DNA of 44,761 nucleotides from Xanthobacter autotrophicus (GCA_017849325.1 JAFIHR010000458.1:1-44761), one strand, 5' to 3'. Positions 1 through 39,831 are shown, numbered from the stretch's first letter. Program-made: numbers and translations. Notes: a model not told the origin generated them from the sequence alone.

Positions 1-345
1 GGCTTCATCGAAGGCCTCGCCAAGCGCGGCATTGACGGCCTGCTCGACCAGACAGCCGGGCGCCTCCGTGCGGTTGCCCATGGCCAGCAGCTCCGGCCTT
101 CCGAGCGCGTCGTAAATGTCCCGAAGCGTGACCGTGGCGAGGTCGCAGCCGATCGTCCATCCGCCGCCATGGCCCTTTTCGGACCGGACGTAACCCCGGT
201 CGCGCAGCCCCGCCATGATCCTGCGGATGACCACGGGATTGGTGCTCATGGCGCGGGCCAGCGCTTCGGATGTGATCGGAGCGGAGTGATCCGCCATGTG
301 CAGCAGGACGTGAAGCACGCCCGACAGTCGGCTATCTCTTTTCAT
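1..345 (-). CDS. Rrf2 family transcriptional regulator (3' end runs off the window)
   Basis: Manual translation from ATG at 345: [63 protein letters not shown]...PGCLVEQAV. This is a typical Rrf2 winged HTH. It is absent from the ORF track because no stop lies in the window. Confidence 0.88.
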
Positions 346-13027: not shown

Positions 13028-13510
13028 TCATGAATTGGCCCGCTTGAGGCGCTCGCCGGGCGCCAGCACTTCGCCGCGGAAACTCGCCACGCCAAATTCC
13101 AGGCTTTGCGCGATCATCTGCGCCTTGCTGATGAACAGGTCGGCGGCCGCAGGCGGACAGACCTCCCGCGCCGTCTCCTCGAACAGTGCGAGCCAACGGT
13201 CGAAATGGTCACCATCGACGGGCAGGCTCGCATGCGCCGGCATCGGGCGGCCGTGATAGCGTCCGCTCATCAGCGCGACCGACGACCAAAAGGCGCGCAT
13301 GCGCTTAATGTGTGAGTCCCAGTCGGAGATGCGCGCGACAAAGATGGGCCCCAGAACCACATCCATCCGGATACGGTCATAGAAGGCGTGGACAAGTCGC
13401 CCGATCATCGCCTCGTCGAGGCCAGTGCGGGCGCCGACATCCGCGGCAAAGGCCTGCCGCCGTTCGGATCCCGTTAGCCCAGGCACCTCGACTGCTCTGT
13501 CGTTCCGCAT
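13028..13510 (-). CDS. Group III (trHbP-like) truncated haemoglobin
   Basis: LVHAFYDRIRMDVVLGPIF..WDSHIKRMRAFWSSVALMSGRYHGRPMPAH..L....FDRWLALFEETA is the 2/2 globin group III pattern. Confidence 0.88.
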   Translation of the reverse strand: MRNDRAVEVPGLTGSERRQAFAADVGARTGLDEAMIGRLVHAFYDRIRMDVVLGPIFVARISDWDSHIKRMRAFWSSVALMSGRYHGRPMPAHASLPVDGDHFDRWLALFEETAREVCPPAAADLFISKAQMIAQSLEFGVASFRGEVLAPGERLKRANS

Positions 13511-13527
13511 TGGATAGCCCACCGACG

Positions 13528-13585
13528 AATTGGTATTTACATTGCTATTTCATTGCATCGATAATTGGTATTTACAATGCTGATT
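13528..13585. promoter_or_regulatory. Two NsrR-like boxes forming a direct repeat AATTGGTATTTACA(T/A)TGCT
   Basis: Copies at 13528 and 13563 (35-bp period) in the AT-rich divergent region between trHb and the Rrf2 gene. Each loosely fits the 11-1-11 NsrR format. Confidence 0.6.
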
Positions 13586-13714: not shown

Positions 13715-14179
13715 ATGCGACTGACAGCCTTCACCGATTATGGCCTCAGAGCCCTGATGTGGCTGGCCGCCCAGCCCGACCGACTGGTGACCACCGACGA
13801 GATCGCCCAAGGGCATGGCATCTCACGCCATCACCTCGTGAAGGTCGTCCGGGAACTGGCCGAGGCAGGCCTCGTTCTCACCCAACGCGGTGGGGGCGGC
13901 GGCATGAGGCTGGCGCGCCCAGCCCATGAGATCACGATCGGCGAGGTGGTGCGCCGCCTGGAGGCGCGCCATGCGCTCGTCGAGTGCTTCCAGGCCGATG
14001 GCGGCGAATGCATCCTTGACCCCGGCTGCCGACTGAAGAGCCGGCTGAAGCGTGCCAGTGAGGCTTTCCTCTCAGATCTAGACCGCTCGACGCTCGCAGA
14101 CTGTGCTGGCCCGCTGGTGCCTGGGCTCGCGCATGCGGCGATGCGACCACAGGACACCAATGTTACGGAGAATTCCTGA
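13715..14179 (+). CDS. NsrR-like Rrf2 regulator (3 Cys)
   Basis: MRLTAFTDYGLRALMWLA...ISRHHLVKVV..L...RGGGGGMRLAR...LVECFQADGGECILDPGCRLK. Confidence 0.85.
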   Translation: MRLTAFTDYGLRALMWLAAQPDRLVTTDEIAQGHGISRHHLVKVVRELAEAGLVLTQRGGGGGMRLARPAHEITIGEVVRRLEARHALVECFQADGGECILDPGCRLKSRLKRASEAFLSDLDRSTLADCAGPLVPGLAHAAMRPQDTNVTENS

Positions 14180-14544
14180 TGCGCACTCGCCCAGATGTCA
14201 TAACGGACCTGAGAGTTGGAAAGCGTGTCGTCCATCTCGACGAGCACGGCTTCCTGATCGATCCCGAGGAATGGGATACTGACATCGCCGAGGCCCTTGC
14301 AACCCGCCAGGACATCAGGCTCACCGACGATCATTGGGACGTCATCTCGTTCATGCGCGAATTCCTCACGGAGCATGGCGTGGCGGCCGACGCGCGCTTT
14401 GTCATGCGCTTCCTCAATGATCGCGCGGCCGCACGCGGCAAGTCGGGTCGGGGTCTCTTGTTCGAACTCTTTCCCTACGGCTATGTCGGGCAGGCATGCC
14501 GGATCAGCGGCATGCGCCAGCCCCGCGCGTGGAGCACAGGCTGA
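14179..14544 (+). CDS. TusE/DsrC-family protein lacking the C-terminal catalytic Cys
   Basis: LDEHGFLIDPEEW..DIAEALA...IRLTDDHWDVISFMREF...LFELFPYGYVGQACRISGMRQPRAWSTG. TGATG coupling to the Rrf2 gene. Confidence 0.8.
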   Translation: MRTRPDVITDLRVGKRVVHLDEHGFLIDPEEWDTDIAEALATRQDIRLTDDHWDVISFMREFLTEHGVAADARFVMRFLNDRAAARGKSGRGLLFELFPYGYVGQACRISGMRQPRAWSTG

Positions 14545-14735
14545 AGCCGGAGGCGATTTACGGCCCCATTCTTGGCCATTTCCCCGACCGCCAGTGCGCA
14601 GAGCTTTCATGCCCGCCAAGAGCCGAGCTTGTTGCAAGCCGCCCGAGGCCACGTCCTTCGTGATCGCGAGCCCCTTGACCTGCGGACGCGGCGCGCTCGA
14701 TGTTAACCGCGGCTACCCCGCGAACCTGCCCTACC

Positions 14736-15656
14736 ATGCAAGACATACTGAGCGATATCTTCGACACGATCCGGCTGCGCGGCACGCTCTATTTCCGCAC
14801 GGACTATGCGCCGCCATGGGCCGTGACCGTGCCAGCTAACGACGAGACCGCGCGCTTCCATCTCATCGTGCAGGGCCGCTGCCACGTCGCGCTCACCGAC
14901 GGGCCGAGCGCCGATCTCGGGCCCGGCGATCTTGTCCTCATCACCCGCGGGCGCGAGCATACCCTCTCCGACGAGGCCGGCCGCCAGCCCGCGCCCCTTG
15001 AGGAGATCGTCAGGATCACAGGCTATGACGGCAAGGGCGTGTTTGCGGTCGGGACCGCTGCGCCCGGCGCAGCCACGCAGATGGTGTGCGGTCACTTGAG
15101 CTTCACGCGCGGCGCAGACCACCCTCTCCTGCGAGCATTGCCGCCCTTGATGGTGCTGCGGCCGGCCGACCGCACGCGCCATCCCTTGCTCGACGAGACG
15201 TTGCGGCTTGTCGCACGGCGCGCTTTTACCGATACCCTGGGAGCTGCCGCATCGATCTCCCGCCTGTCGGAGGTGTTCTTTATCGAGGCCGTGCGTGTGG
15301 CCATTGGCGAAAGTCCCGAACTGGCGGGCGTGATCACAGCCATGACGGACACTCAGATCGGCAAGGTTCTCGGCCGCATTCATGAGGCGCCGGCGGAGCT
15401 CTGGACCGTCGAGACGTTGGCGCAGGTGGCGGGTATGTCGCGCAGCCGGTTCGCTGAGCGCTTCACCGGCCTCCTGGGGATCGCACCTATGGCCTATGTG
15501 GTCGAATGGCGGCTTCAGAAAGCCCTGGCACGCCTGTCGGAAAGCGATGCCAATGTGAAGAGCGTCGCCGCCGAGGTCGGCTACAAATCGGCGGCCGCCT
15601 TCACCCGCGCCTTTGCCAGCCGGTTCGGCATGACCCCGAGCGAAGTCAGCGCATAA
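14736..15656 (+). CDS. AraC family regulator with cupin-like N-terminal domain (RclR-like)
   Basis: DILSDIFDTIRLRG...PWAV...FHLIVQGRC...MVCG...WTVETLAQVAGMSRSRFAERF...VGYKSAAAFTRAF. Confidence 0.88.
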   Translation: MQDILSDIFDTIRLRGTLYFRTDYAPPWAVTVPANDETARFHLIVQGRCHVALTDGPSADLGPGDLVLITRGREHTLSDEAGRQPAPLEEIVRITGYDGKGVFAVGTAAPGAATQMVCGHLSFTRGADHPLLRALPPLMVLRPADRTRHPLLDETLRLVARRAFTDTLGAAASISRLSEVFFIEAVRVAIGESPELAGVITAMTDTQIGKVLGRIHEAPAELWTVETLAQVAGMSRSRFAERFTGLLGIAPMAYVVEWRLQKALARLSESDANVKSVAAEVGYKSAAAFTRAFASRFGMTPSEVSA

Positions 15657-16013
15657 GAACGGCTCCGTTCCCGTTGGGTCGCCGAGGCGGTTTGATTGGG
15701 GCCATCAGGCCGTCCGCGTTCGACAAGCCAGGATTCGTGCCCGAGCATATTCTGCCGAGGCGACGCCCAGCCTCATCCCGATGGCAGCCCACGCCCCAAT
15801 CAAATGAGCTGGAGGGGCTGACCACGTGTGAGGCGAAGCGTTTCTTTGCCCGCGGGCCTGCCAGGACCGGGTTGCGGCGCGCCTATTCGGCCATTTATTT
15901 GCGGATCGTCCCAAACATTATGCCAAAAACCCGCCTCTCATTGGCGTGAATTGATACATCATCCCATATCAGGCGACATCTCTCCGTCAGCAACCGCCAA
16001 TGGAGACATCAAA

Positions 16014-16559
16014 ATGCAGCGCATTCCAGCCATTGATCCCGGCAAGGCGACGGGAGAGGTCAGGGCCACCTTGGACGTGGTCAAGTCCAAACTCGGTGGC
16101 GTTCCGAACCTCTTCACCACCATGGCCGTGGCTCCCTCGGTCCTCAACGCCTACCTCGCCTTCTCCGATGCCGTCGGCAAGGGATGTCTGTCGGTCAAGG
16201 TGCGCGAGCAGATCGCCCTCGTCACGGCCAATACCAACGGCTGCGATTATTGCGCGTCGGCCCATCAGGCCCTCGGCAAGATGGCCGGACTTTCGGCCGA
16301 GGAGATCGAAAAGGCGCTCGACGGGCAAGCTGGCGATGCCAAGACCGCGGCCGCGCTTTCTTTCGCCCAGACTGTGCTGGCCGAGCGCGGCCACGTTTCC
16401 GACACCGTGCTCGCGTCTGCGCGCGAAGTCGGCTTCTCCGACACGGAGATCCTCGAGGTCGTCGCCAATGTGGTGCTCAACATCTTCACCAATTACTTCA
16501 ACAACGTCGCCGGCACCGAGGTCGACTTCCCGCGCGTGACGACGCGCCGGGCGGCCTGA
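16014..16559 (+). CDS. AhpD/carboxymuconolactone decarboxylase family peroxidase-like protein
   Basis: REQIALVTANTNGCDYCASAH (CxxC-x3-H) and NIFTNYFNNVAGTEVDFP. RBS ggag precedes the ATG at 16014. Confidence 0.88.
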   Translation: MQRIPAIDPGKATGEVRATLDVVKSKLGGVPNLFTTMAVAPSVLNAYLAFSDAVGKGCLSVKVREQIALVTANTNGCDYCASAHQALGKMAGLSAEEIEKALDGQAGDAKTAAALSFAQTVLAERGHVSDTVLASAREVGFSDTEILEVVANVVLNIFTNYFNNVAGTEVDFPRVTTRRAA

Positions 16560-16996: not shown

Positions 16997-18310
16997 TCAA
17001 TCGTGTGCGACGTCTTTCATCACCTGCTTCCGCAAGGCCTTCAGCTCCTCAAAGCGTGCGGTGATGTCGCGGATCGTCGCCACCATGCCAGCCACGCGCC
17101 CCTCGGGATTTTTGAGGAGCACGATGGTGAACTCGAGCGAGATGCGCTTGCCGTCCTTGCGCAGGCCGGGCACGGCGAGCATGTCCCCGGCGCCATAGCG
17201 GCTTTGCCCCGATGCCACGGTCTCGCGATATCCCTGCCAATGCCGCGCGCGGAAGGGCTCGGGAATGATGATGTCCAGCGACTGGCCGAGCGCCTCCTGC
17301 TCGGTGAAGCCGAAGATGCGCTCTGCTCCGGCGCCCCACGCCACGATCGCGCCATCCGCATCGCTGGCGACTACCGCGTCTGCTGCGCTGTCGAGCAACG
17401 CCCCGCCCATCTGGTTCCGTGTCAGGGTCCCGATCACGCGCGTATGCCGCTCCGCCACCGGCTGCGCGGCGGGCGCGGCGGGCGCATATGGTGCCTCGAC
17501 GCTCTCCTCTTCGCCAAGAACGTCGGTGATCGGCCCGAAGAACTCATAGTGGAGACGTCCCACAGGAACGCCGCGCCGATGAAGGCCCTGCACCATGTCC
17601 CGGATAAAGCCGAGGGGACCGCAGACGAAATATTCGGCGTGCCCCACGGGCGCGTACGTCGCCAGCCAGTCCACTGTCAGGCGGCCGCGGAAATCGTAGT
17701 CCCGTCCCGCCTCATCCTGATCGCGCGGCCGGGAATAGAAGGTTGTCGTCGTCACCTCTCCGGCCTGTTGGGCGAGTTCGCGCACGTGATCTCGGAAGGC
17801 GTGGGTGGCGCCATTCCGCGTGCAGTGGACGTAGCGAACCTGTGCTCGGACATCGCTGCGGACGATTTCCTCCAGCAGGGCCACCATGGGTGTCAGGCCG
17901 ACGCCAGCGCTCACCAGCACGATGGGCCGATCCGCCTGCTCGGGCAGGACGAACGCGCCGCTGGGCGGCGCCACATCCAACGACATCCCCGCGACAGCTT
18001 CGTCGTGGAGCCATCGGGAGACGATGCCGTTCGCCTCACGCTTGACGGAGATACGATAGGTTTCGCCGTTAGGCGCCGTGGACACCGTATAGTTCCGCTT
18101 CTGCCGCCCCCGCGCAGGGATGTCCGCGAACAGCGTGAGGTGTTGGCCCGCCCTGTAGCGGGGCAACGGCGCGCCATCCAACGGACGCAGAATGAACGAC
18201 GTGATGATGTCGCTCTCGCGGCGACGGTCCTCGACCACGAACGGCCGTGGCCCGCGAGGGGCAGCATGCCCTGGCTCCGCGTCTCCTGCGGTGACAGTGC
18301 TTCTCATCAT
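16997..18310 (-). CDS. Flavohaemoglobin-type FAD/NAD(P)H reductase (no globin) fused to a C-terminal FixL-like PAS domain
   Basis: Reductase motifs RESDIITSF, GQHL, RNYTVS, GIVSRWLH, SAGVGLTP, CGP and HYEFFGP. A Pro/Ala linker is followed by the PAS segment DAVVASDADG..W..GAERIFGF...GQSLDIIIPEPFRARHWQGY...RKDG...IRDIT. Confidence 0.85.
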   Translation of the reverse strand: MMRSTVTAGDAEPGHAAPRGPRPFVVEDRRRESDIITSFILRPLDGAPLPRYRAGQHLTLFADIPARGRQKRNYTVSTAPNGETYRISVKREANGIVSRWLHDEAVAGMSLDVAPPSGAFVLPEQADRPIVLVSAGVGLTPMVALLEEIVRSDVRAQVRYVHCTRNGATHAFRDHVRELAQQAGEVTTTTFYSRPRDQDEAGRDYDFRGRLTVDWLATYAPVGHAEYFVCGPLGFIRDMVQGLHRRGVPVGRLHYEFFGPITDVLGEEESVEAPYAPAAPAAQPVAERHTRVIGTLTRNQMGGALLDSAADAVVASDADGAIVAWGAGAERIFGFTEQEALGQSLDIIIPEPFRARHWQGYRETVASGQSRYGAGDMLAVPGLRKDGKRISLEFTIVLLKNPEGRVAGMVATIRDITARFEELKALRKQVMKDVAHD

Positions 18311-18327
18311 GATGGACTCCCGACATA

Positions 18328-18350
18328 ATCATGCATATAATATACATGTT
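18328..18350. promoter_or_regulatory. NsrR-type operator ATCATGCATAT-A-ATATACATGTT
   Basis: 11-1-11 inverted repeat with 9/11 arm symmetry, close to the AANATGCATTT NsrR half-site, 17 bp upstream of the reductase-PAS start. Confidence 0.78.
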
Positions 18351-18469: not shown

Positions 18470-18790
18470 ATGAGCGCCTCACAATCATTGGCACTCGTGG
18501 CCATTTTACTCGCGACAATCATGCTGTCGGCAGCGAGTATAACCGTTGTTACCCAATGGACCCCGGGCACAGGCACGGAAACACTGGTGGAGGCAAACTT
18601 GGGCATGGGCGTCCTGTGCGCAGCCACCGCCTTCGCCACGACACGGCACAGCTTGCTCGTGGGTGTTGCGGCCCTGGTGGTCGGGTTTCTGGGACACGCC
18701 ACGTTCGGCGGTGCGTTCGCGCACAAGCGAGCAGTTATCTGGCTCTCCGCTCCGCTTTTCTTTGTCTATCTCGCATACGCCCGCTTCTGA
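18470..18790 (+). CDS. Small hypothetical membrane protein
   Basis: 106-aa ORF with 3-4 hydrophobic segments that fills the gap before the HPP gene. No family recognised. Confidence 0.45.
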   Translation: MSASQSLALVAILLATIMLSAASITVVTQWTPGTGTETLVEANLGMGVLCAATAFATTRHSLLVGVAALVVGFLGHATFGGAFAHKRAVIWLSAPLFFVYLAYARF

Positions 18791-18822: not shown

Positions 18823-19860
18823 TTGCCAGTCTTTGCGCGCCTGCGACTGTTTCGACCGATCCTCGCCGGGGCGACGGCTCAGGACCGCGGGCTTGCCTGC
18901 CTCGGAGCCCTGCTGGGCATCGGCCTGTCTGCTCTGATCGGGGGGCTGGCCGCAGCCGATATGAGCCATCTGATGTGGATCGTGCCACCCATGGGCGCTT
19001 CCGCCGTGCTGCTTTTCGCGGTGCCCGCAAGCCCCATGGCGCAACCGTGGGCCACCATCGGTGGCAACGTGGTGTCGAGCTTGATCGGCGTGTTGGTCGC
19101 CCACAACATGCCCCTCTCAGCTTGGTCCGCGGGCATAGTCGTCGCATCCGCCATTGGCGCGATGTCGCTGCTGCGTTGCCTGCACCCACCGGGAGGCGCT
19201 GCGGCACTGGTCGGCTTGTTCGCGGGGCATTCGTCGAGCCTGCTCTTCCCAATCTTTCCGGTGGGCCTTAACGCCGTCGTGCTCGTCGCCAGTGCCTGGC
19301 TCTACCACCGGCTGTCAGGCCACACCTATCCGCACGTTGCCAATCCGGCGGCGGACAGGCGGGACACCCCCTGGACCTTCAACAGGACGGACATGGCTGT
19401 GGCATTGGAGGAGATCGGCGAGACGTTCGACATCGATGCAGGGGACCTAGAGAATTTGGTTCGGAAAATTGAGGAGCGCGCGCTCGCGCGGACCTATCAT
19501 GAGTTGAGCTGCACCGACCTGATGACAGTGGGGATCATCTCGGTCAAGGATACCTCCTTTCCCAACGAGGCAAGGGAATTGCTGGTGGCGCACGACGTCC
19601 GGCGCCTGGCGGTGGTCGATCGAAACGGGTGCATCGCGGGAGTGGTTGGCCTGCGCGAACTCGTGCGGCACGCCGCACATGTTGCGGAGATCATGTCGGA
19701 AGCCTCGACCGCGTCGCCCAACTTGCCGGCCATCGAGCTCTTGGAGAGGTTCGCACGGGATCGCGTTCACGCCGTTTTCGTGGTCGACGAGATGCAGCGA
19801 CCCGTCGGCGTGGTGACCGAAGCCGATTGGCTCGCCGTGCTCACCCGCGGCCTGAATTAG
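18823..19860 (+). CDS. HPP family membrane protein with C-terminal CBS domains
   Basis: PPMGASAVLLFAVPASPMAQPW..IGGN, CLHPPGGAAAL, then CBS pairs (LAVVDRNGCIAGVV; VFVVDEMQRPVGVVTEAD). TTG start at 18823 behind ggag. Confidence 0.85.
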   Translation: MPVFARLRLFRPILAGATAQDRGLACLGALLGIGLSALIGGLAAADMSHLMWIVPPMGASAVLLFAVPASPMAQPWATIGGNVVSSLIGVLVAHNMPLSAWSAGIVVASAIGAMSLLRCLHPPGGAAALVGLFAGHSSSLLFPIFPVGLNAVVLVASAWLYHRLSGHTYPHVANPAADRRDTPWTFNRTDMAVALEEIGETFDIDAGDLENLVRKIEERALARTYHELSCTDLMTVGIISVKDTSFPNEARELLVAHDVRRLAVVDRNGCIAGVVGLRELVRHAAHVAEIMSEASTASPNLPAIELLERFARDRVHAVFVVDEMQRPVGVVTEADWLAVLTRGLN

Positions 19861-19980: not shown

Positions 19981-20400
19981 ATGCGCCTCACGCGCTACAC
20001 AGACTATGCAATGCGCGTACTGCTGTTCCTCGGCTCGCGCCCCGACCAATTGTGCTCCATCGCTGAGATCGCGCGGTCCTACGGCATCTCGCAAAACCAC
20101 CTGATGAAGGTCGTAAACGATCTCGTGAATGCCGGCTATCTTCATAGCGTACGTGGGCGTTCGGGGGGTATCCGGCTCTCGCGGCCACCGGGCGAGATTA
20201 ATATCGGCGCGCTCGTTCGCCATACCGAAGATGATTTCGATCTGGTGGGCTGCGGCTCCTGCATCATCGCCCCGGCGTGCGGGCTGACCTGCGTTTTCGA
20301 CGAGGCTCTTCACTCGTTCCTGTCCGTGCTTGATCGTTATTCGCTGGCGGACGTACTGAACAAGCGCGGAGATTTGAGGCCCCTGCTCAAGGCATCCTAG
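19981..20400 (+). CDS. nsrR: NsrR-like NO-sensing Rrf2 regulator
   Basis: MRLTRYTDYAMRVLLFL...SIAEIARSYGISQNHLMKVV..L...SVRGRSGGIRL...LVGCGSCIIAPACGL. An NsrR half-site AAGATGCATCT lies at 19916-19926. Confidence 0.82.
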   Translation: MRLTRYTDYAMRVLLFLGSRPDQLCSIAEIARSYGISQNHLMKVVNDLVNAGYLHSVRGRSGGIRLSRPPGEINIGALVRHTEDDFDLVGCGSCIIAPACGLTCVFDEALHSFLSVLDRYSLADVLNKRGDLRPLLKAS

Positions 20401-20913: not shown

Positions 20914-22092
20914 CTAGAGGCGAGGTCTGATCAAGGCCGGACCATAGATAGCTGCGAAGCCGAGGAAAGCCACAAGCCAAGCGCTGGCGGCCACGAGCAG
21001 CAGGACGAGGCTCCACTGCGGCACGAGGGCTGCACCGATCCGCGTCATGACCGCGAGGAGCAGCGCCGCATAGAGGATCTGTGTCCCCCACCCGGCATAC
21101 AACGCCCGTCCGGTATGGCCGAGGCTAGCGCGGGTCATCACGGCCAAGGTCATTCCGCCGATGGCGCCTACGGCCCACGCATGTAGGCCCGCGCTGAGCG
21201 GAATCGTCGGAACGAATGCCGCAAGGCCGCTCAGCAAGAAACCGATGGGAACAAAGGCGTAGGCAACATGCAGGATTGCCACCAGCACTTCGCCCGACGC
21301 CCGATCGCCGGCCCAGCGGCTAAGCCGCGCAAAATTCATCCCGCTCGCCGCGATCAGGGCCAGCCCTACCATCTGGTCCTCCGGAGCGATGATCCAGCCC
21401 ACCATCGCGCCGCAGGACACGGCCATTGAGATCCCGTCGAAACGGTCAAAGGTCCGCGGCAACCGGACAGCGCCCTGCCGCAGCAGAAATGTGTGCGTGA
21501 AGCTCGGCACGATCCGCCCGCCGATCAGCATGACGAGCACGACGATGACCGCAAGGGCGAAGCGACGGGCATAGGCAGCATCGCCGGTCAGATGCGCCTC
21601 CAGGTGAAAAAGGACGTTCGCCGCGAGGAGCAGCACGACGGCGCCCCATATCCGCAGGTTGCGCCAGTTGCGGCCCGCCACGATCTCCCGTGCGATGGCT
21701 GCGCAGAGCAGCGCCAGGAAGGCGCAGTCGACGGCTGCTGCCGCCGCCCACCCGATGGTGCCGGAACAGGCGACCGCGACTCGGCCGGCGAGCCAGACCA
21801 GGACCAGGAGCAGCAGCGGGCGTCCCTGCAGGGGCAGGCGGCCGGTCCAGTTCGGCACGGCCGTCAGGAGAAAGCCCGCGATGACCGCGCCGCCATAGCC
21901 GAACAACGCCTCATGGGCGTGCCAGTCCATTGGCTGGAACGCGTCGGAAATAATGATCTCGCCAAAATAGACCGGTAGCCAAGCCATGACTGCCACGCCG
22001 GCCCACAGCGCGCCCGCCAGAAAGAACGGCCGGAACCCCCAGCTCAGCACCGCCGGGCCATTGTAAGAGCGGCGGCCTATTGGATCGGACAT
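20914..22092 (-). CDS. nnrS: NnrS family protein
   Basis: GFRPFFLAG, WHAHEALFGY..AVIAGFLLTAVPNWTG, IGGRIVPSFT, LHAWAVGAIGGMTLAVMTRASLGHTGR. Confidence 0.93.
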   Translation of the reverse strand: MSDPIGRRSYNGPAVLSWGFRPFFLAGALWAGVAVMAWLPVYFGEIIISDAFQPMDWHAHEALFGYGGAVIAGFLLTAVPNWTGRLPLQGRPLLLLVLVWLAGRVAVACSGTIGWAAAAAVDCAFLALLCAAIAREIVAGRNWRNLRIWGAVVLLLAANVLFHLEAHLTGDAAYARRFALAVIVVLVMLIGGRIVPSFTHTFLLRQGAVRLPRTFDRFDGISMAVSCGAMVGWIIAPEDQMVGLALIAASGMNFARLSRWAGDRASGEVLVAILHVAYAFVPIGFLLSGLAAFVPTIPLSAGLHAWAVGAIGGMTLAVMTRASLGHTGRALYAGWGTQILYAALLLAVMTRIGAALVPQWSLVLLLVAASAWLVAFLGFAAIYGPALIRPRL

Positions 22093-22148
22093 GACGGCTC
22101 CTTGGTCAGCGTGGCGTGCTCCAGTAGACTTTGGGCAATGTCCCGTCG

Positions 22149-22162
22149 TTGCGCGCGAGCAA
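22149..22162. promoter_or_regulatory. NnrR/Fnr-type box TTGCG-N4-AGCAA
   Basis: ttgcgcgcgagcaa lies in the divergent nnrS/nnrR intergenic region. Confidence 0.6.
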
Positions 22163-22190
22163 TCTCGCTCGCGAATAGAAAGACCATGCC

Positions 22191-22883
22191 GTGAGTCGCC
22201 TCCATCCTTCGCTGATCATCGGCGCGCCGGTCTTCGCCGGCCTCGACGCAGGGGCCCTGGACGATATTCTCTCCCGCGCGCAGACTGTGCGGCTGTCCAA
22301 AGGTGACTTGGCCTTCCGTCAGGATCAACGGGCCGATCGCTTCTTTCTGCTGCTCCACGGCCGCTTGCGGGTCACCCGGCTCAACGCGGAGGGAGGGCAG
22401 GTGGTCGTCCGCTTCATAGCGCCCAACGACTTGTTCGGCGTCGGCATGGCGATCGGCGCTGCGACCTATCCCGGCACCGCGACGGCGGTCGTGGACTCTT
22501 TGGCCTTGGTCTGGCCGAACTCAGCCTGGACCGATCTCGTCGCGGCCTATCCGAGCGTCGCGGTCGAAGCCCTGCAGTCGCTCGGCGCCCGCCTTCAGGA
22601 TACCCAGGAGCGCGTGCTCGACCTCTCGACGCTGAACGTGGAACAACGCATCGCCGGCGCCGTCCTGAGCCTCGCAGCCCAGGCGGGACGGGCGACCGAA
22701 GACGGAACTCTGATCGATTTTCCGCTCTCCCGCCAGGATCTGGCAGAGCTGACCGGGACGACCTTGCACACCGTGAGCCGCACGCTCAGCGCATGGGAAG
22801 CCAAAGGGCTGGTCGTCAGCGGCCGCCGTCGCATCACCGTGCGCGACGGCCCCGGCCTGGAGGTGATCGCGGGGAAGAATTAG
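22191..22883 (+). CDS. nnrR: Crp/Fnr family regulator, NnrR-like
   Basis: FFLLLHGRLRV...YPGTATAVVDS..LVWP...VEQRIA...IDFPLSRQDLAELTGTTLHTVSRTLSAWE. Divergent from nnrS. Confidence 0.85.
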   Translation: MSRLHPSLIIGAPVFAGLDAGALDDILSRAQTVRLSKGDLAFRQDQRADRFFLLLHGRLRVTRLNAEGGQVVVRFIAPNDLFGVGMAIGAATYPGTATAVVDSLALVWPNSAWTDLVAAYPSVAVEALQSLGARLQDTQERVLDLSTLNVEQRIAGAVLSLAAQAGRATEDGTLIDFPLSRQDLAELTGTTLHTVSRTLSAWEAKGLVVSGRRRITVRDGPGLEVIAGKN

Positions 22884-23041
22884 GGCGCGGTCGATCTTGA
22901 GGCCTTTGTTGATCGCCTGCTGGACTGGATTTGCGGCGCAGCGGCGCTGAGCCGGCAACGCGCGCCCCGAAGCTGGCCACGTGCGGAGCCCGAGGTGGAG
23001 CGCATGCCGGATCGCGTCGCCTGTCGCCTCGCCTGCGCGCT

Positions 23042-23509
23042 TCAAAGCAGGAAATACCCGTGAGCCCCGGCCGTGCCCCCCAGCACTGTGAGGGCGGAGA
23101 CAAGAAGCAGCACGAGATGGAGGCGCAGCGCCCGAGACAGCACCGCTTCAGGTGCCCATCGGGCGGCTCGGGCAATCCTGTGGCCGAGGAGCGGCTCCAC
23201 CACGAACACCACGGTCATGAAGAGCACCCAGAGCGCCACCATGGCCGTCATCCACCAGAAGGCAGGGTCCGCGAAACGATCCCACAGATCAAGGCGCCAT
23301 GTTATCCAGAAGCCGGTGAGGCCGGCCAACGGGATGGACAAGCGCACCTGCGTCGCGAAGCGGTGCTCGATGCGCTCGAACAGCGCGACGCCCTCGGGGC
23401 CTACGGCCCGAGCCAGGGGCAAGATCACCAAGGTCACCAAGGAGACGCCGCCGATCCAGTGCACGATCGCGAGTACGTGAAGCGCACGGGCCAGCGTCAC
23501 GTCATCCAT
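23042..23509 (-). CDS. Hypothetical 4-TM membrane protein with His residues (possible haem b or metal ligands)
   Basis: MDDVTLARALHVLAIVHWIGGV...LH..LL...GTAGAHG. RBS aggaaaagga. Last gene of the nar operon. Confidence 0.7.
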   Translation of the reverse strand: MDDVTLARALHVLAIVHWIGGVSLVTLVILPLARAVGPEGVALFERIEHRFATQVRLSIPLAGLTGFWITWRLDLWDRFADPAFWWMTAMVALWVLFMTVVFVVEPLLGHRIARAARWAPEAVLSRALRLHLVLLLVSALTVLGGTAGAHGYFLL

Positions 23510-23520
23510 ATTCCTTTTCC

Positions 23521-24546
23521 TCAACCGCCCAGGGCGGACATATGTCGCGCGAGGGCGGGGGTGCCATTGCGGGCGATGACGAAATCATGGCCGCGCGGCT
23601 TGGCACGAACGGCCTCAGCGATGGCCGCGCGCAGCGCCTCCTCGCCGCCTTCGGCGCGCAGCGGTGCGCGTAGGTCCGCCGCATCTTCCTGGCCGAGGCA
23701 GGTGTGGAGCACTCCGGTGGCGCTCACCCGCACGCGATTGCAACTCTCGCAGAAGGAATGGCTCATGGGCGTGATAAAGCCGATGCGCCGGCCGGTCTCG
23801 ACGACGCGCGCATAGCGGGCGGGTCCGCCGGTGCGTTCGCCCGTTTCGATGAGGGTGAGGCGCGTCCCGATCAGCTGGCGCAACTCGTCGAGGGGCAGAT
23901 ACTGGTCGATGCGGTCCACCCCCACGTCGCCCAGGGGCATGGTCTCGATGAAGGTGATGTCCATGCCACGGGTGTGGGCGAAATGGATGAGGTCGAATAC
24001 CTCGCGCTCCGTGGTGCCGGCCAGGGCGACTGCATTGAGCTTCACCTTCAGCCCCGCCTCCGAGGCGGCGCGGATGCCGTCCATCACCGCACCCAGGACA
24101 CCGCGTCGCGTGAGCATCCGGAAGCGCGCGGCATCAAGCGTGTCGAGGGAAACGTTCACGCGCCGCACGCCAAGGCGGGCGAGCGCGTCCGCATGCCGGG
24201 CAAGCTGGGTGCCGTTGGTGGTCAGCGTCAGCTCCCTCAGGCCGCCGCCGAGATGGCGCGACAAGGACGCGAAGAGATCCATCACGCCCTTGCGCACCAG
24301 GGGCTCGCCGCCCGTGAGGCGCAGCTTGGTGACGCCCAAGGCGATGAAGGCAGAGGCGAGCCGGTCCAGTTCTTCGATGGAGAGAATCTCATTGCGCGGC
24401 AGGAAGGTCATGTCCTCCGCCATACAATAGACGCAGCGCAGGTCGCATCGGTCGGTCACCGACAGGCGCAGATAGGAGATGCGTCGGCCGAACAGGTCCA
24501 CCATGACGCAAGGTCTGGCGGCATCGACCACCCCGGTTGATGTCAT
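23521..24546 (-). CDS. moaA: GTP 3',8-cyclase MoaA
   Basis: [18 protein letters not shown] (CxxxCxxC), [16 protein letters not shown]...LHTCL, C-terminal MSALGG. Confidence 0.95.
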
Positions 24547-25373
24547 TCCATTTCCTCCCGCTCGGCTCCGAACGGGCCGTTGTCCCAGGCGCCGCACGTG
24601 CAGGCGCTGCCGAAGGGGGCGATCGCTCCCATGTCTGCCAGCTCCATCTCGAGGAATGCGGCGACGGCGTGAAGGCGCGCGGCGCTCATGGGCTCGTGCG
24701 GCGTGGCGAGCAGATCGTCGAGGGGCGGAAGAGCCGCGAGCTCTTCCGACGAGGAAAGCGTCGTTCCAAGGTCGCGCAACAGGCCGTCGCCGATGCCGTA
24801 GATCCAGCCATGAACCGTGACATCCAGCCCGCGAGCCCAGGCCGTCTTCAGCACCGGCGTGGCGGCAAGGCGGCGCATCTGGAGGCTTACATTCAGCTCG
24901 CACAGCTTGTCGAGAGGCGTGGCAGGCGCTGCCGTCCGATCGATGGCGGCGCGGTGGCGGATGCAGAGATCGACAACGGGGGCGAGCCAGTGGTCGACCA
25001 GCGTGTGGCCCTCGCCAAGGCGGCCTTCCGCATTCTCGACGGCGCGCTTCACCCCGCCGCAGCCATAGTGTCCGCACACGATGACGTGGCGCACGCGGAG
25101 CACCTCGACTGCGAATTCCAGGACCGCCAGGAGATTCATGTCGCTGGAATGGACCACGTTGGCGATGTTGCGGTGGACGAAGAGCTCGCCCGGATCCAGA
25201 CCCACCACGTCGTTGGCCGGCACGCGGCTGTCGGAGCAGCCCACCCACAGGAAGCGGGGCGCTTGCTGCTCCGCGAGGCGACGGAAGAAAGTGGGGTCCT
25301 TCTCGTTCTTGGCGTTGGCCCAGGCGAGGTTCTTGTCAAACAATTCGTCGAGGACGGTGTCAGGCGGGGCCAC
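24543..25373 (-). CDS. Beta-class carbonic anhydrase with C-terminal extension
   Basis: [44 protein letters not shown] start at 25373; ATGA overlap with moaA. Confidence 0.9.
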
Positions 25374-25719
25374 GGTCCGATCCTTCGCAGGCGTTCCCCT
25401 GTCCGCCGCAGCTGCACCCCGCGGCGTTCGCCGCGGACGCGGCATCGTGCTTCAGAGACCATTCGATCATGGCGCGCAGGCAGGTCAGGGCCGGGTCCGC
25501 GCCGCGCTCCAACGCCGACGTCAGGGCAAGCCAGTCCTCGTCGCCGGCGCCCTCCCCGAAGCGCGCGCAGGCGCCGGCGGCGTACTCCGCCGCCGTCTCG
25601 CCGAAGCGGGCGGCGGCTTTTTCCACGCGCATGGCGAGGGTCACGTCACCCAAGGCCATGAGCATCTGCGAGGCGAGGCGCTCATCCTCCAATTGACGCA
25701 AGAGCGCTCCCAGCAGCAT
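25360..25719 (-). CDS. Hypothetical protein in the nar operon
   Basis: RBS aggagg; MLLGALLRQLEDE...AGDEDWLAL...DP...CLRAM...GCSCGG. Sits between the PpiC and carbonic anhydrase genes. Confidence 0.72.
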   Translation of the reverse strand: MLLGALLRQLEDERLASQMLMALGDVTLAMRVEKAAARFGETAAEYAAGACARFGEGAGDEDWLALTSALERGADPALTCLRAMIEWSLKHDAASAANAAGCSCGGQGNACEGSDRGPA

Positions 25720-25728
25720 GGCCACCTC

Positions 25729-26571
25729 CTATTGCACCAGGGGGGAGGCCGCCGCATCCAAGGCGATGCCGTGGATTTCCGCACGGCCGGCGAGCAGGCT
25801 GAGATACTGGCGCACGGCGATGTGCCAAGCCGTCACCTCCAGATGGGCGGCGATGGTGGCCTCAACCGCGTCGAGCGGCAGATCGCGGCCTTCGATGCAG
25901 CGGGCGAGGCGGACGATGTGGAAGCCATAGCGGGTCTCCACCAGTTCGGGATGAGGCGCGCCCGGGCTGATCGACGCCAGCGCGGCCTCGAACTCGGGCA
26001 CCGTGTCGCCCGGCCCGATCTGGCCGAGATTGCCGCCGCTCTCCCGGGAGGGGCAGGCCGAATGCGCCCGCGCCATTTCTTCCCAAGAGGCGTCGCCCGA
26101 GAGAATGCGGTGGAGCACCGTCGCGGCCAGTTCGCGCGCCGCCGACCGCCGCACCGCATCGTCAAGCGCGGCGGGGACGAGGATGTGGGACGCCTCGAAC
26201 AGGTCCGGCGTACGGAACCGGGCGCGGTTCTGCGCGTAATAGCGCCGGCAGGCGTCCGCATCTGCGTGCGGTACCTTCACCTCCTGCTCCAGCAAAGTGC
26301 GGATGAGGGCTTCATCCTCCGTCTCCAGCCGTCCGTCCGCATCTTCCTGGGCGGCGGCGGAAAGGCCGAGGGCGGACGCCTCGGCCAGCAGCAGCTCCCG
26401 CACCACGAGGGCGCGAACGGCGGCCTCCCGCGCCGCGGCGGGTGTCTTCGCGGTGTGGTGCTGCATCTCGCGGGCGATGGCCGCGCGCGAGATCTTCACG
26501 CCGTTCACCGAGACCTCCTGCTGCGAGACGACCGCAGGGGTTACGGGGGCGTGGGCGACGGTCTCTACCAT
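25729..26571 (-). CDS. PpiC/parvulin-type peptidyl-prolyl isomerase (NifM-like), nar-associated
   Basis: ASHILV, HSACPSRESGGNLGQI, VPEFE, VETRYGFHIV. Confidence 0.9.
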   Translation of the reverse strand: MVETVAHAPVTPAVVSQQEVSVNGVKISRAAIAREMQHHTAKTPAAAREAAVRALVVRELLLAEASALGLSAAAQEDADGRLETEDEALIRTLLEQEVKVPHADADACRRYYAQNRARFRTPDLFEASHILVPAALDDAVRRSAARELAATVLHRILSGDASWEEMARAHSACPSRESGGNLGQIGPGDTVPEFEAALASISPGAPHPELVETRYGFHIVRLARCIEGRDLPLDAVEATIAAHLEVTAWHIAVRQYLSLLAGRAEIHGIALDAAASPLVQ

Positions 26572-26575
26572 GGCG

Positions 26576-27364
26576 CTACTCCGCAGGATGGCTGAAGGAG
26601 CCGGAGGAGGCAGGGCGCACCGCCACCACGGGTGCGCGCGCCGTCAGGCGCCCGGCAGACTGGCGCGGTTGCCGGCTGCGCACCACCTGGTAGCCGGTGC
26701 GGCCGAGGTACCAGACCGGCGCGCTCCAAACGTGCACCAGGCGGGTGAAGGGAAAGACGAGAAAGATCGTCATGCCTAGGAGCAGGTGCGCCTTGAAGAG
26801 GGGGCTCACGTCCGCGACATAGGCGGCCGCGGCGGGCTGGAGGGTGAGGATTCCCTGGGCCCAGTTCATGAACTTCACCATTTCGTGCCCGTCCATGTGC
26901 TGGAGCGAGATGAAGATGGTGGAGAGACCCAGGGTGAGCTGTACCCACAAGAGCAGCAGGATCGCTGTGTCCCCGAAGCTCGAATTGGCGCGGATGCGCG
27001 GATCGAACAGCCGGCGATGGGCGAGGAGCGCGATGCCGACGAAGCACATCACCCCCGCGATGCCGCCCACTGTGATGGCGAGCCCCTGCTTGAAGGAATG
27101 GGAGATGCCGAGCGCGTCGAACACCCAGATGGGGGTGAGGAGCCCGCCAGCATGGCCGATGAAGATGATGAGGATGCCCACGTGGAAGAGGTTGGAGCCC
27201 CACCTGAGCTGCCGTCGCCGCAACAACTGGGACGAGCCTGTCTTCCAAGTATACTGCTCGCGGTCGAACCGGACGATGCTGCCAACCAGGAAGACCGTGA
27301 GGCAGAGATAGGGATACCAGCCGAACAGCGCGGAATTGATGGCGTTGGACAAGGTTTCGGGCAT
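26576..27364 (-). CDS. narI: Respiratory nitrate reductase gamma subunit
   Basis: YPYLCL...RFDREQYTWKTGSSQLL...SNLFHVGIL...GH...KAH...FPFTRLVHVWSAP. Confidence 0.96.
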   Translation of the reverse strand: MPETLSNAINSALFGWYPYLCLTVFLVGSIVRFDREQYTWKTGSSQLLRRRQLRWGSNLFHVGILIIFIGHAGGLLTPIWVFDALGISHSFKQGLAITVGGIAGVMCFVGIALLAHRRLFDPRIRANSSFGDTAILLLLWVQLTLGLSTIFISLQHMDGHEMVKFMNWAQGILTLQPAAAAYVADVSPLFKAHLLLGMTIFLVFPFTRLVHVWSAPVWYLGRTGYQVVRSRQPRQSAGRLTARAPVVAVRPASSGSFSHPAE

Positions 27365-27376
27365 GGCCGTCCTCCC

Positions 27377-28093
27377 TCAGGGGTCGTGGCGCGCGTCACG
27401 CTGAGCGGCGCGCAATTGCGTGCGAAAGCGGTCCACGGAGCAGCCACCCATGGCGTCGCCGGGGCCGAACGTAACGAGGGTCTCCTCCCACTCCTTGTCG
27501 AGGGCAGCGAGGTCGTCAGCGGACCCGTTGGCAGGATCGGGCCAGGCGGGCGCGGCTGGCGAGGACGTCGCTACCGCCCCCGAAAAGTTGCGCAGTGCAC
27601 AGAACACCGCGGCATAGGTCGAGCCGCGCTCGACGAGGCGCTCCTCAAGGGCGGCGAGAATGTGGTCCACGTCCGCCAACAGGGCCTTCGCCTCCGCCAA
27701 CGGGCGCGTCGCCGCGTATTCGACGAAGAGCGGAAGGAAGTCCGGCAGTTCGCTGGTCATAAGATGCAGACCGCCAGCCTCGTAGAGCGCCGAAAGGTCG
27801 ACCATCGCCTGTCCGCGGTCGCGGCTCTCGCCGTGAACGTGCTCGAACAGATGGAGCGAGAGCCGGCGCGTGCGGTCGAACAGGCTCACATAGGTCTCTT
27901 GAAGGACATAGAGATCGTCCTGGGCGAGCGCCTCCAACAGCGGGGCAAGCGCGTCGCGCGCCGCGACACCGACGAGGTCCTCCAAGGCCAACACATCCGG
28001 GATGGCGGGGGCGGTGGCCACAAGGTCCTCCTCAGGATAGGTCAGAAGGAAGGACAGGGACTTCAGGGTGAGGAACTGGTCATGCATGGCCAT
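27377..28093 (-). CDS. narJ: Nitrate reductase molybdenum cofactor assembly chaperone
   Basis: LLTYP...YVSLFDRTRRLSLHLFEHVHGESRDRGQAMVDL...ELPDFLPLFVE. TGATG coupling with narH. Confidence 0.95.
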   Translation of the reverse strand: MAMHDQFLTLKSLSFLLTYPEEDLVATAPAIPDVLALEDLVGVAARDALAPLLEALAQDDLYVLQETYVSLFDRTRRLSLHLFEHVHGESRDRGQAMVDLSALYEAGGLHLMTSELPDFLPLFVEYAATRPLAEAKALLADVDHILAALEERLVERGSTYAAVFCALRNFSGAVATSSPAAPAWPDPANGSADDLAALDKEWEETLVTFGPGDAMGGCSVDRFRTQLRAAQRDARHDP

Positions 28094-29625
28094 CACTCCA
28101 CCTCCATGGGCGTTTTTGCTTTCTTCGGCGGCTGCACAGGGCTGCCGAAGAGGTTGAGGGAGGTCTCGCCGCCGGAGCAGCCGTTGCCGAAGGAGAAGCC
28201 GCATGAGCCGCGCAGGTCGTAGGCGTCCTCGCTCCATTCGCGGTGGGCGGTGGGGATGACGAAGCGGTCCTCGAAATTGGCGATGGCCATCACCTGGTAC
28301 ATCTCATCGATGTCCGCTCCCGTAAGACCGACCTTCGTTGCGACGGCTTCGTCAAGGCGACCATCGACCGTCTTGGCGCGCATGTAGGCGCGCATGGCGA
28401 GCATGCGCTCGAGGGCCAGGGCGACCGGCGCCTCCTCACCGGCAGTGAGCAGGTTCGCTAGATATTTCAGTGGGATGCGCAGCGAGCGCACGTCCGGCAT
28501 CTCGCCGTCGACCCCCATCTTGCCGGCCGCCGCGGCCGACTGGATGGGCGAGAGCGGCGGCACATACCAGACCATGGGCAAGGTGCGGTACTCGGGATGG
28601 AGTGGAAAGGCCACCTTCCACTCCATGGCCATCTTCCAGATGGGGGAATGGCGGGCGGCCTCGATCCAGGCGTCGGGTACTCCGTCGGCGCGGGCCTGCG
28701 CGATCACCTTCGGGTCCTTGGGATCGAGGAAGAGGTCGAGCTGAGCCTGGTAGAGCTTCGCCTCGTCCTTGACGCTGGCGGCCTCCTCGATGCGATCGGC
28801 GTCATAGAGCAGGACGCCGAGATAGCGGATGCGCCCGACGCAGGTCTCCGAGCACACGGTCGGTTGGCCCGCCTCGATGCGCGGATAGCAGAAGATACAC
28901 TTCTCCGACTTTCCAGAGGACCAGTTGTAGTAGATCTTCTTGTAGGGGCAGCCGGACACGCACATGCGCCAGCCGCGGCATTTTTCCTGGTCGATCAGGA
29001 CGATGCCGTCCTCCTCCCGTTTGTAGATGGCGCCGGATGGACAAGAGGCTGCGCACGCCGGATTGAGGCAGTGCTCGCACAGGCGCGGCAGGTACATCAT
29101 GAAGGTGTTTTCGAACTGGCCATATATTTCATTCTGGACATTCTCGAAATTTACATCCTTCTTACGCTTCTCGAATTCGCCGCCGAGGATCTCCTCCCAG
29201 TTCGGGCCCCACTCGATCTTCTCCATGCGCTCGCCCGAGACGAGGGAGCGCGGTCGCGCCGTCGGGAAGGCCTTGGATTCCTTCGCCGTTTGTAGGTGCT
29301 CGTAATCGAACGTGAAGGGCTCGTAATAGTCGTCGATCTCCGGCAGGTCCGGATTGGCGAAGATGTTGGCGAGGATGCGCCACTTGGCGCCGATCTTCGG
29401 TTCGATCTTGCCGTTGGCCTTGCGCCGCCAGCCGCCATTCCACTTCTTCTGGTTCTCCCACTCGCGGGGATAACCGACACCGGGCTTGGTCTCGACATTG
29501 TTGAACCAGGCGTATTCCACGCCCTGGCGACTGGTCCACACGTTCTTGCACGTGACGGAGCAGGTGTGGCACCCGATGCACTTGTCGAGGTTTAGCACCA
29601 TCGCGATCTGGGCACGGATCTTCAT
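28093..29625 (-). CDS. narH: Respiratory nitrate reductase beta subunit
   Basis: MKIRAQIAMVLNLDKCIGCHTCSVTCKNVW, CEHCLNPAC, CRGWRMCVSGCPYKK, CIFCYPR. Confidence 0.98.
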   Translation of the reverse strand: MKIRAQIAMVLNLDKCIGCHTCSVTCKNVWTSRQGVEYAWFNNVETKPGVGYPREWENQKKWNGGWRRKANGKIEPKIGAKWRILANIFANPDLPEIDDYYEPFTFDYEHLQTAKESKAFPTARPRSLVSGERMEKIEWGPNWEEILGGEFEKRKKDVNFENVQNEIYGQFENTFMMYLPRLCEHCLNPACAASCPSGAIYKREEDGIVLIDQEKCRGWRMCVSGCPYKKIYYNWSSGKSEKCIFCYPRIEAGQPTVCSETCVGRIRYLGVLLYDADRIEEAASVKDEAKLYQAQLDLFLDPKDPKVIAQARADGVPDAWIEAARHSPIWKMAMEWKVAFPLHPEYRTLPMVWYVPPLSPIQSAAAAGKMGVDGEMPDVRSLRIPLKYLANLLTAGEEAPVALALERMLAMRAYMRAKTVDGRLDEAVATKVGLTGADIDEMYQVMAIANFEDRFVIPTAHREWSEDAYDLRGSCGFSFGNGCSGGETSLNLFGSPVQPPKKAKTPMEVE

Positions 29626-33374: not shown

Positions 33375-33391
33375 GATGCGAAGTCCTCCGC

Positions 33392-36151: not shown

Positions 36152-36227
36152 GGCTCTGTCTCGCCCGTTGCAATCGCACACGTGGATGGTGCGAACGGCA
36201 ACCTGCGCCCGGCCTCACGGGTCATCT

Positions 36228-38368: not shown

Positions 38369-38433
38369 GTTCAACAACGTTCATTTATGTTGAGCATACT
38401 CTATGTTCAACGACTTTCAAGGTTGTTGAACAT
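38367..38433. repeat. Two tandem 31-bp palindromes ATGTTCAAC-N13-GTTGARCAT
   Basis: Copies at 38367-38397 and 38403-38433 with identical 13-bp spacer length. The first overlaps the start codon of the nucleotidyltransferase gene. Confidence 0.85.
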
Positions 38434-38616
38434 GCAAGTCTGGAAACGGGAAAGCAGGCTAGCGAAAGGCTCCCGACGCTGCCACTTGTCCGAAGGTGGC
38501 CAATCTCGGCCAACGAATGACAGGGGCGCATCACCTGACGAACAAGATCTTCCACGAAGATTCGGAAGCCCGTCCCCGATTCATTCAGCGCTGATGGGCG
38601 GCAACTCCCACATCCA

Positions 38617-39338: not shown

Positions 39339-39506
39339 CTAAGGCGAGCCCGCCCGGGATTGTCCCTTAGCCGGATAACGAGGTGCGTCCGGCCCAATGG
39401 TAGATTTCTCTCCGCCAACCAAGCCCACAACGTCCCGGTCCAGGCTCCCGTTCAGCGATTTTGAGCCGTGTGCGTACGCTGGGGCACGCCAGAATTGCCT
39501 TTGGCG

Positions 39507-39553
39507 TGCTTACTCTGCGCTTACCGGAATGTTCATGCTGAGCATAGTAAGCA
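39507..39553. repeat. GCTTAC direct pair (11-bp period) plus inverted GTAAGC; candidate integrase arm-type sites of the left island
   Basis: tgcttac at 39507, cgcttac at 39518 and gtaagca at 39547. Confidence 0.45.
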
Positions 39554-39557
39554 GAAA

Positions 39558-39573
39558 GCGCCCTAAAGGGCGC
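39558..39573 (-). terminator. Hairpin downstream of the tRNA 3' end
   Basis: Minus strand reads gcgccc-ttta-gggcgc followed by tttct. Confidence 0.55.
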
Positions 39574-39604
39574 CTACTAACTATCTAATTTTTCTGAGAG
39601 AAAC

Positions 39605-39649: not shown

Positions 39650-39768
39650 CTTTGGGCGGAGCCTGCGCTGCAACACGCTGTCGCACTAAAATATACTATT
39701 TATCATATGGTTATTGATTATCACATTACGACGACGTATCCTTTTTTGGCCCACGAAACTCGCGTTTC

Positions 39769-39815: not shown

Positions 39816-39831
39816 GAAGGAGGATGCCGGC

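Follow-up and report, generated by a model that had tools for sequence, protein, structure and literature searches.

A conserved alphaproteobacterial family joins a flavohaemoglobin-type reductase to a FixL-like PAS domain with a predicted haem site

The fusion gene and its surroundings

The window analyzed here is a stretch of 44,761 nucleotides from Xanthobacter autotrophicus. On its minus strand, positions 16997-18310 encode a protein of 437 residues (P0001) in which ORF, Pfam and NCBIfam analysis reveal an Hmp-type reductase, a linker and a PAS domain in succession. The reductase is an FNR-type FAD/NAD module (residues 18-260, positions 17531-18259), and phmmer, a structure match and a tree all point to its derivation from flavohaemoglobin. 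The linker (residues 261-297, positions 17420-17530) is delimited by column conservation and by low pLDDT at residues 270-276. The remainder (residues 298-437, positions 17000-17419) is a PAS domain with a C-terminal helix, FixL/DosP-like in sequence as well as structure matches; within it, positions 17240-17242 encode His357, the predicted proximal haem ligand. A Shine-Dalgarno-like GGGAG (18317-18321, minus strand) is found 6 nucleotides before the ATG. Pfam places FAD_binding_6 at residues 49-120, NAD_binding_1 at 132-239 and PAS at 304-416 (among the five best families). The motifs listed in an earlier, sequence-only reading of this locus (RNYTVS, GIVSRWLH, SAGVGLTP, CGP, EFFGP and IPEPFRARH) are all present in the frame.

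That reading described an Hmp-type reductase lacking its N-terminal globin, and the description holds. Compared with the NCBIfam model for the NO-inducible flavohemoprotein (NF009805), P0001 matches profile positions 152-396 of 399 only, with 280 bits against a cut-off of 432; because the match starts only at position 152, the globin part is missing. Just 17 residues precede the reductase module, and an N-terminal globin domain, sought with Pfam, NCBIfam and phmmer, is absent. Pfam also agrees that no output domain is attached: neither P0001 nor its listed homologues carry a kinase or phosphodiesterase. The C-terminal [2Fe-2S] ferredoxin domain of the PDR type is absent as well, with the PAS domain in its place. 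P0001 has no cysteine beyond residue 230, so its PAS domain is cysteine-free. The Pro/Ala linker noted earlier is indeed Ala/Pro-rich and variable after a short conserved acidic stretch that follows EFFG; its column conservation is 0.44, against 0.80 for the PAS domain.

The interval that separates the fusion gene from the divergent genes contains a palindromic NsrR-type operator, ATGCATATAATATACAT (18331-18347), recognized by consensus match and conservation. Its 17-base core has no mismatch to the NsrR consensus gATGyAT-N5-ATrCATc given in PMC1274295. The box stands about 20 nucleotides before the fusion ATG, or 17 when its imperfect flanks are counted, which is the distance originally stated, and it overlaps a sigma70-like site on the plus strand (18313-18341). 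Taken singly the box is not beyond chance, as 14 of 100 window shuffles matched it with at most one mismatch. Its conservation across relatives is beyond chance when judged by shuffled sequences: a box with at most one mismatch occurs in the 250 nucleotides upstream of 29 of the 57 relatives (which are not independent of each other), against 2 of 1140 dinucleotide shuffles. In four out of five genomes (that of the window and those of three isolates) a perfect box occurs nowhere but at the fusion gene; the fifth, a fourth isolate, has a one-mismatch box there, among three such sites genome-wide. An Rrf2 gene is present within 2.5 kb of 31 of the 57 fusions. Box or Rrf2 accompanies 37, and 20 have neither.

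The likely binder of the box is an NsrR-like Rrf2 regulator with three cysteines (19981-20400, plus strand), assigned by NCBIfam and neighbourhood. It remains below the cut-offs for both NsrR (131.8 bits, cut-off 182) and RirA (121.8 bits, cut-off 193), and one relative's regulator scores RirA above NsrR. The same Rrf2 type flanks true hmp genes carrying the same box. In three cases (L002-L004) the fusion is divergent from an Rrf2 gene yet lacks the consensus box; at L004 another palindrome-like site is present.

Also on the plus strand, the ORF call gives a small hydrophobic ORF (18470-18790; 106 residues, no Pfam match), and Pfam and neighbourhood indicate a divergent gene for an HPP-CBS membrane protein (18823-19860, start codon estimated). 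An HPP gene recurs beside 20 of the 57 fusion relatives. Pfam further finds nnrS, a Crp/Fnr regulator, moaA, carbonic anhydrase, PPIase, respiratory nitrate reductase genes and an MFS transporter (20914-36181), a nitrate reductase region that is a likely source of NO. Such a nar island is present in the window and a few relatives, and fusions lie near nas-type genes at 13 of 57 loci. Beside the nar cluster, positions 37334-44751 hold a nucleotidyltransferase, an integrase, a pair of HTH and HipA-like genes and DUF5131, which suggests the edge of a mobile island.

On the other side of the fusion gene, a truncated haemoglobin (trHb) gene is located 3.5 kb away as claimed (13028-13522, minus strand; Pfam/NCBIfam). 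It forms a separate unit with a second Rrf2 gene (13715-14179), and four opposite-strand genes separate it from the fusion gene. A direct repeat of 14 bases, AATTGGTATTTACA (13528-13541 and 13563-13576), is found between this globin and the second Rrf2; the region 13528-13576 is possibly a variant operator. TusE/DsrC, AraC and AhpD/CMD genes come after the second Rrf2 (14179-16559), and a third Rrf2 gene is seen at the start of the window (1-333).

Spread and ancestry of the fusion family

The reductase-PAS fusion is a real, conserved alphaproteobacterial protein family. A domain-architecture search and a neighbourhood survey, the checks proposed along with the sequence-only reading, bear out the two-domain design: all 120 listed top homologues span at least 90% of the query with PAS and NAD-binding domains, and 57 full fusions from 52 genomes were surveyed among 80 genome loci, each in one open frame. 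Named hosts are Ancylobacter, Xanthobacter, Aquabacter, Azorhizobium, Terrihabitans, Flaviflagellibacter and Azospirillum. In a sample of the family, 15 of 151 genomes possess the fusion. Automatic database names of the homologues are 'PAS domain S-box protein' or 'nitric oxide dioxygenase'. Mean top-residue frequency is 0.80 for the PAS domain, 0.70 for the FAD part and 0.64 for the NAD part, making the PAS domain the most conserved portion, and all 121 fusions share His357, Trp358, Tyr361, Arg371 and Tyr372.

Both halves occur as separate genes elsewhere, and the contigs of four sequencing runs are fragmentary, none of those listed spanning the whole fusion gene, as might be expected if read-through or an assembly artefact had joined two genes. 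The frame is nonetheless intact at 57 of 57 loci, many of them from cultured isolates, and three near-identical proteins of 433-434 residues fall in the same cluster as P0001. A one-off artefact, named at the outset as the finding that would overturn the proposal, is thus contradicted, and we give this explanation practically no weight.

The closest solved relatives of the reductase are the flavohaemoglobins of Ralstonia (1cqx, E 6.9e-60) and E. coli (E 1.6e-48) in phmmer, and a VIA-align structure comparison of the module with 4eh1 yields Z 33 at rmsd 1.7. A FastTree phylogeny with midpoint root was built from 139 rows (40 fused reductases, including P0116, 84 from Hmp and 15 others). The 40 fused reductases all fall into a single clade (SH-like support 98%), which branches from among the 84 Hmp reductases. 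In a smaller FastTree phylogeny of 60 rows, 12 Hmp reductases were mixed among the fusions; we prefer the larger tree. Judged by this phylogeny, the fused reductases descend from those of Hmp, and the simplest reading would be a single origin from an hmp gene through gain of a PAS domain and loss of the globin.

One protein of 569 residues, P0116, combines globin, reductase and PAS. It passes the Hmp cut-off and is a complete Hmp with a PAS domain appended. It may represent a retained intermediate, or the globin may have been regained. P0116 is a singleton: a metagenome scan for its relatives retrieved none, and a second scan, in which 79 of 80 loci were scored (71 Hmps, 2 fusions, 6 others), contained no three-domain form. 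At residue 57 of the FAD domain, 34 of 39 fusions have His, whereas Tyr stands there in 83 of 84 Hmps and in the globin-bearing P0116, a distribution according to which the change follows globin loss.

No new fusion partners emerged from a profile search of 1.84 billion representatives, which was dominated by multi-PAS kinases. A search for longer proteins retrieved nothing beyond reductase fusions, fragments and signalling proteins with several PAS domains, and the ESM Atlas matches were generic small PAS clusters. Searches of the open-access literature uncovered neither the fusion nor the stand-alone PAS family treated below, in line with the initial impression that the architecture was not recognized as characterized.

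The PAS domain, its predicted haem site and its stand-alone relatives

The 11 best PDB matches of the PAS profile are all FixL or DosP. The best structural match of the PAS model is FixL 8js5 (Z 17.6, rmsd 2.4, 135 residues aligned), and the haem-PAS entry 10jx and DosP reach Z 16.8 and 16.1. The margin for haem-PAS is modest, since the best flavin-binding PAS or LOV domain attains Z 15.5; 3lyx, which is not described as haem-binding, attains 16.7. The segment IPEPFRARH had been placed at the haem-ligating region by eye, and sequence alignment indeed puts His357 on the haem-His position of FixL, in the F-alpha helix. Beyond the fusions, all 120 of the short homologues listed retain this His. 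According to PMC10468136, the F-alpha His is the primary determinant of haem binding in the haem-PAS cluster. It is therefore highly probable that the domain binds haem, with His357 as the predicted ligand.

In FixL, the distal Arg220 stabilizes bound O2. With its position fixed via the R220A structure entry, alternative alignments place Arg220 opposite either the invariant Leu378 or Asp376, so the usual O2-stabilizing residue is missing from the PAS domain; the invariant Arg371 and Tyr372 could act as substitutes. Motifs specific to the family are RHW.GY and RY.G..LL.VP. A six-coordinate His/Met haem involving Met409 was considered and rejected: every one of the 121 fusions has this residue, but among 61 stand-alone members only 17 do, and it aligns to a FixL strand position that does not lie over the iron. 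The PAS tree (quick method, 134 columns) is poorly resolved and no direction was drawn from it.

The AlphaFold model of P0001 has a mean pLDDT of 89.6 and a pTM of 0.84, a high value for domains joined by a loose linker, which suggests a defined packing. We superposed this model on reductases with a C-terminal [2Fe-2S] domain and read the last aligned residues. These pair P0001 residue 372 with 2pia 280, 356 with 7ylr 279, 380 with 6laa 768 and 381 with 6kbh 775, and residue 359 pairs with the final aligned residues of 9nez_C and 1ep3_B. Provided that entry numbering equals sequence position, 2pia 280 and 7ylr 279 are cluster cysteines and 6laa 768 and 6kbh 775 are situated two residues after one. 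Because the alignments end there in the [2Fe-2S] reductases, the His357 helix and the next loop would occupy the site of the one-electron acceptor. Docking of the PAS domain at the electron-exit site of the flavin is predicted in this way from one AlphaFold model without controls and from alignment end points only. Fusion-typical residues that are not typical of stand-alone members (Pro352, Phe353, Val365 and Ser367) gather on the His357 helix, a clustering that may also be attributed to kinship.

The same PAS domain is widespread as a stand-alone protein: 3747 proteins of 77-247 residues, some of them fragments, were retrieved at E up to 1e-20. Within 2.5 kb of 61 such loci (two duplicated) we counted a truncated globin 13 times, Rrf2 11 times, frc 8 times, metH 7 times and metB 6 times, and in a phylum sample most matches outside the window's family adjoin frc. 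Oxalate operons of the order oxc-frc-PAS-frc, with the His kept, recur in alpha- and betaproteobacteria (L122-L128, L178, L182, L183, L188-L200), and no description of this subfamily was found in the open-access literature. Other stand-alone genes are directly downstream of metH (L093, L099, L101, L103, L105, L111, L120), near metB in six other loci, beside a haemerythrin-domain or nitrobindin-like gene, or behind a PDR/VanB-type reductase in Azospirillum. On pPRO1 of Pelobacter propionicus (L179:1-7365), the domain is part of a same-strand run of nrfA, an Fe-S protein gene, HPP, hcp, PAS, ric and flavorubredoxin, which judged by its genes is a nitrosative-stress cluster. Pelobacter propionicus is a strict anaerobe, and O2 chemistry in this operon is unlikely. 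At L048:8001-10561 a fusion gene immediately precedes one for a formyl-CoA transferase, bringing the NO and oxalate contexts together at one locus. An SP(P/A)CFMHE motif occurs in small genes adjoining the PAS gene, fused to PAS, or N-terminally in 5-formyl-THF cyclo-ligases (L166:1029-1424, L170:1477-2049, L171:96-788, L116:2357-3064; the small gene is without Pfam match). By gene context, then, the domain is tied repeatedly to NO stress, yet confined neither to NO stress nor to oxic life. This large family in non-NO contexts was overlooked in the sequence-only reading, as were the loss of the FixL distal Arg and the retention of Hmp in many fusion genomes; its account of the architecture itself stands.

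Such contexts bear on whether the PAS domain, rather than being a redox centre, might sense a gas or a non-haem ligand and thereby turn a general flavin reductase on or off. The characterized haem-PAS domains covered by PMC10468136 are sensors, the family has the same His in oxalate and methionine contexts, and the PAS domain, if docked over the flavin, could obstruct it. However, an output domain is absent, the PAS domain is conserved above both reductase parts, its predicted haem face would fill the acceptor site, and a globin as alternative acceptor was not found in 13 genomes (see below). We consider a sensor role rather improbable.

Candidate functions and comparison with known systems

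Globins were surveyed in 50 of the 52 fusion genomes with Hmp and trHb as queries, followed by PF01152 and PF00042. A full Hmp passing the cut-off is present in 13 of the 50, and the trHb query matches 33, one of them partially. The 15 genomes with neither were searched further, PF01152 being found in none and PF00042 in 2. Some globin is thus present in 37 of 50 genomes, and in 13 of 50, all of unreported completeness and several of them MAGs, none was found by the four queries. These 13 are mostly Ancylobacter and close kin and include the isolates A. vacuolatus, A. radicis, A. polymorphus, A. rudongensis and A. dichloromethanicus; in each of the 13 an Rrf2 gene adjoins the fusion, and the box is present in 12. 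Five globin-less genomes yielded no protoglobin when searched, and NirK, Hcp, NorV and NnrS were not found in four. In the latter four, every COX1-family match scores above 380 bits, as terminal oxidases do, and the two inspected are cbb3 operons, so that no NorB was seen in this search. The window's genome (89% complete) contains several truncated globins and one single-domain globin, and no hmp was seen in it. Among the 57 fusion loci, 45 of which have at least 5 kb of flank on both sides, trHb is found in the fetched flanks of 2, and hmp is a direct neighbour in 5. Both this adjacency and the retention of Hmp in 13 of 50 genomes suggest that the jobs of the two proteins are not identical.

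We propose that NO, arising from nitrate reduction or from outside, would release the Rrf2 repressor and thereby derepress the fusion gene. NADH would then reduce the FAD of the reductase module, the FAD would reduce the predicted His357-bound PAS haem within the same protein, and the O2-bound haem would oxidize NO to nitrate. That the protein contributes to NO defence in some way appears very likely, and electron transfer from FAD to haem within the protein is probable; that NO dioxygenation is the main reaction is put forward tentatively. FixL is among the proteins for which PMC3820574 mentions a reaction of NO with bound O2, and an attached reductase would make such a PAS-haem reaction catalytic. 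The protein might stand for a second, globin-independent class of NO dioxygenase, with the PAS haem as active site, that arose once by exchange of the globin for a haem-PAS; we offer this as our best reading while recognizing that it may well prove wrong.

The thought that a PAS haem replaces the globin was already part of the sequence-only reading. Ancestry, regulation and domain geometry speak for it, and so do the 13 of 50 genomes in which the fusion could be the stand-in for Hmp, four of them also without NirK, Hcp, NorV and NnrS. Against it are the missing distal Arg, the many genomes that keep Hmp as well (13 of 50), the 20 of 57 loci without an NsrR link, and the stand-alone members in oxalate operons, after metH/metB and in Pelobacter propionicus.

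Several of these points would suit a reduced PAS haem that traps or slowly reduces NO without O2, at low oxygen during nitrate reduction. The absence of the distal Arg, the Pelobacter nrfA-HPP-hcp-PAS-ric-flavorubredoxin operon and the nas-type or nar genes near the fusions fit this explanation, and coexistence with Hmp would be a division of labour by oxygen level. A single haem, however, is a poor NO reductase, the reductase stems from a dioxygenase lineage, and the four globin-less genomes noted above have several terminal oxidases with no other aerobic NO sink seen. O2-independent NO handling is in our view unlikely, though deserving of attention.

A further option is an electron relay, in which the PAS haem, in the manner of cytochrome b5, re-reduces trHb or other globins, RIC or methionine synthase in trans. 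Stand-alone PAS genes lie within 2.5 kb of trHb at 13 of 61 loci (two duplicates) and after metH at 7, one follows the PDR/VanB reductase in Azospirillum, 37 of 50 fusion genomes have a globin, and P0116 unites all three domains. A precedent is the NsrR-controlled operon of trHb and ferredoxin-reductase mentioned in PMC3820574. The relay includes the split flavohaemoglobin formed with the nearby trHb that had been suggested for the window. As a general rule the latter does not hold: no globin gene was met in the fusion operon or conserved alongside it in the loci surveyed. An obligatory split is unlikely because just 2 of the 57 fusions have trHb nearby, and because the 13 genomes (of 50) in which no globin was detected retain the fusion beside its Rrf2 all the same; a facultative split is compatible with the survey. 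Moreover, the single-domain globins near five Ancylobacter fusions have their own NirB-like flavoprotein directly after them, as in bjgb-flp (PMC4724949). These bjgb-flp-like pairs are found some 5.5 kb downstream of the fusion gene, within clusters for nitrate assimilation (L018:14648-16368, L007, L009, L012, L022). Altogether a relay seems doubtful, and we retain NO dioxygenation at the PAS haem as the preferred proposal.

If that proposal is true, an oxygen-sensor fold serves as an enzyme active site, NO handling in genomes without detected globin, Hcp or NorV is explained, and the thousands of stand-alone PAS members would be soluble redox or gas-scavenging haem proteins instead of sensors. 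The natural domain swap would test what NO dioxygenation needs of a haem pocket without the globin TyrB10 or the FixL Arg220, and the current automatic annotations would be corrected. As a single soluble protein of 437 residues, the fusion gives a direct assay for the widespread, uncharacterized stand-alone family.

Compared with Hmp/FHP (E. coli 1gvh, Ralstonia 1cqx), P0001 shares the reductase lineage and fold, and hmp genes in these bacteria have the same NsrR-type box and Rrf2 neighbour. The differences are the C-terminal PAS domain instead of an N-terminal globin, and the His that mostly takes the place of Tyr at residue 57. Because the defining globin is absent, P0001 is not a member of Hmp, though we infer that it is Hmp-like; apparently it represents an uncharacterized modification of the flavohaemoglobin plan in which the predicted haem belongs to a PAS domain. 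In the portions of the flavohaemoglobin reviews consulted, NO dioxygenation is treated as globin chemistry, and the other NO dioxygenases named in the relevant part of PMC6950321 are globins only. The oxygen sensors FixL and DosP are the best sequence and structure matches and have the His on the F-alpha helix in common with the fusion PAS. The latter differs in lacking a kinase or phosphodiesterase, in being joined to a reductase, in its replaced distal Arg and in its own motifs. The Bradyrhizobium bjgb-flp operon of globin and flavoprotein (PMC4724949) and the operons of trHb and FNR (PMC3820574), as described in these sources, likewise place a globin-free flavoprotein in nitrate/NO gene contexts. 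There a globin is co-transcribed, whereas the fusion gene has none and brings its own predicted haem domain. Finally, the phthalate dioxygenase reductase type (2pia and the CYP116B reductase) resembles P0001 in following the FNR module with a C-terminal one-electron acceptor at the same predicted site, but its acceptor is a [2Fe-2S] ferredoxin, whereas that of P0001 would be a cysteine-free PAS domain.
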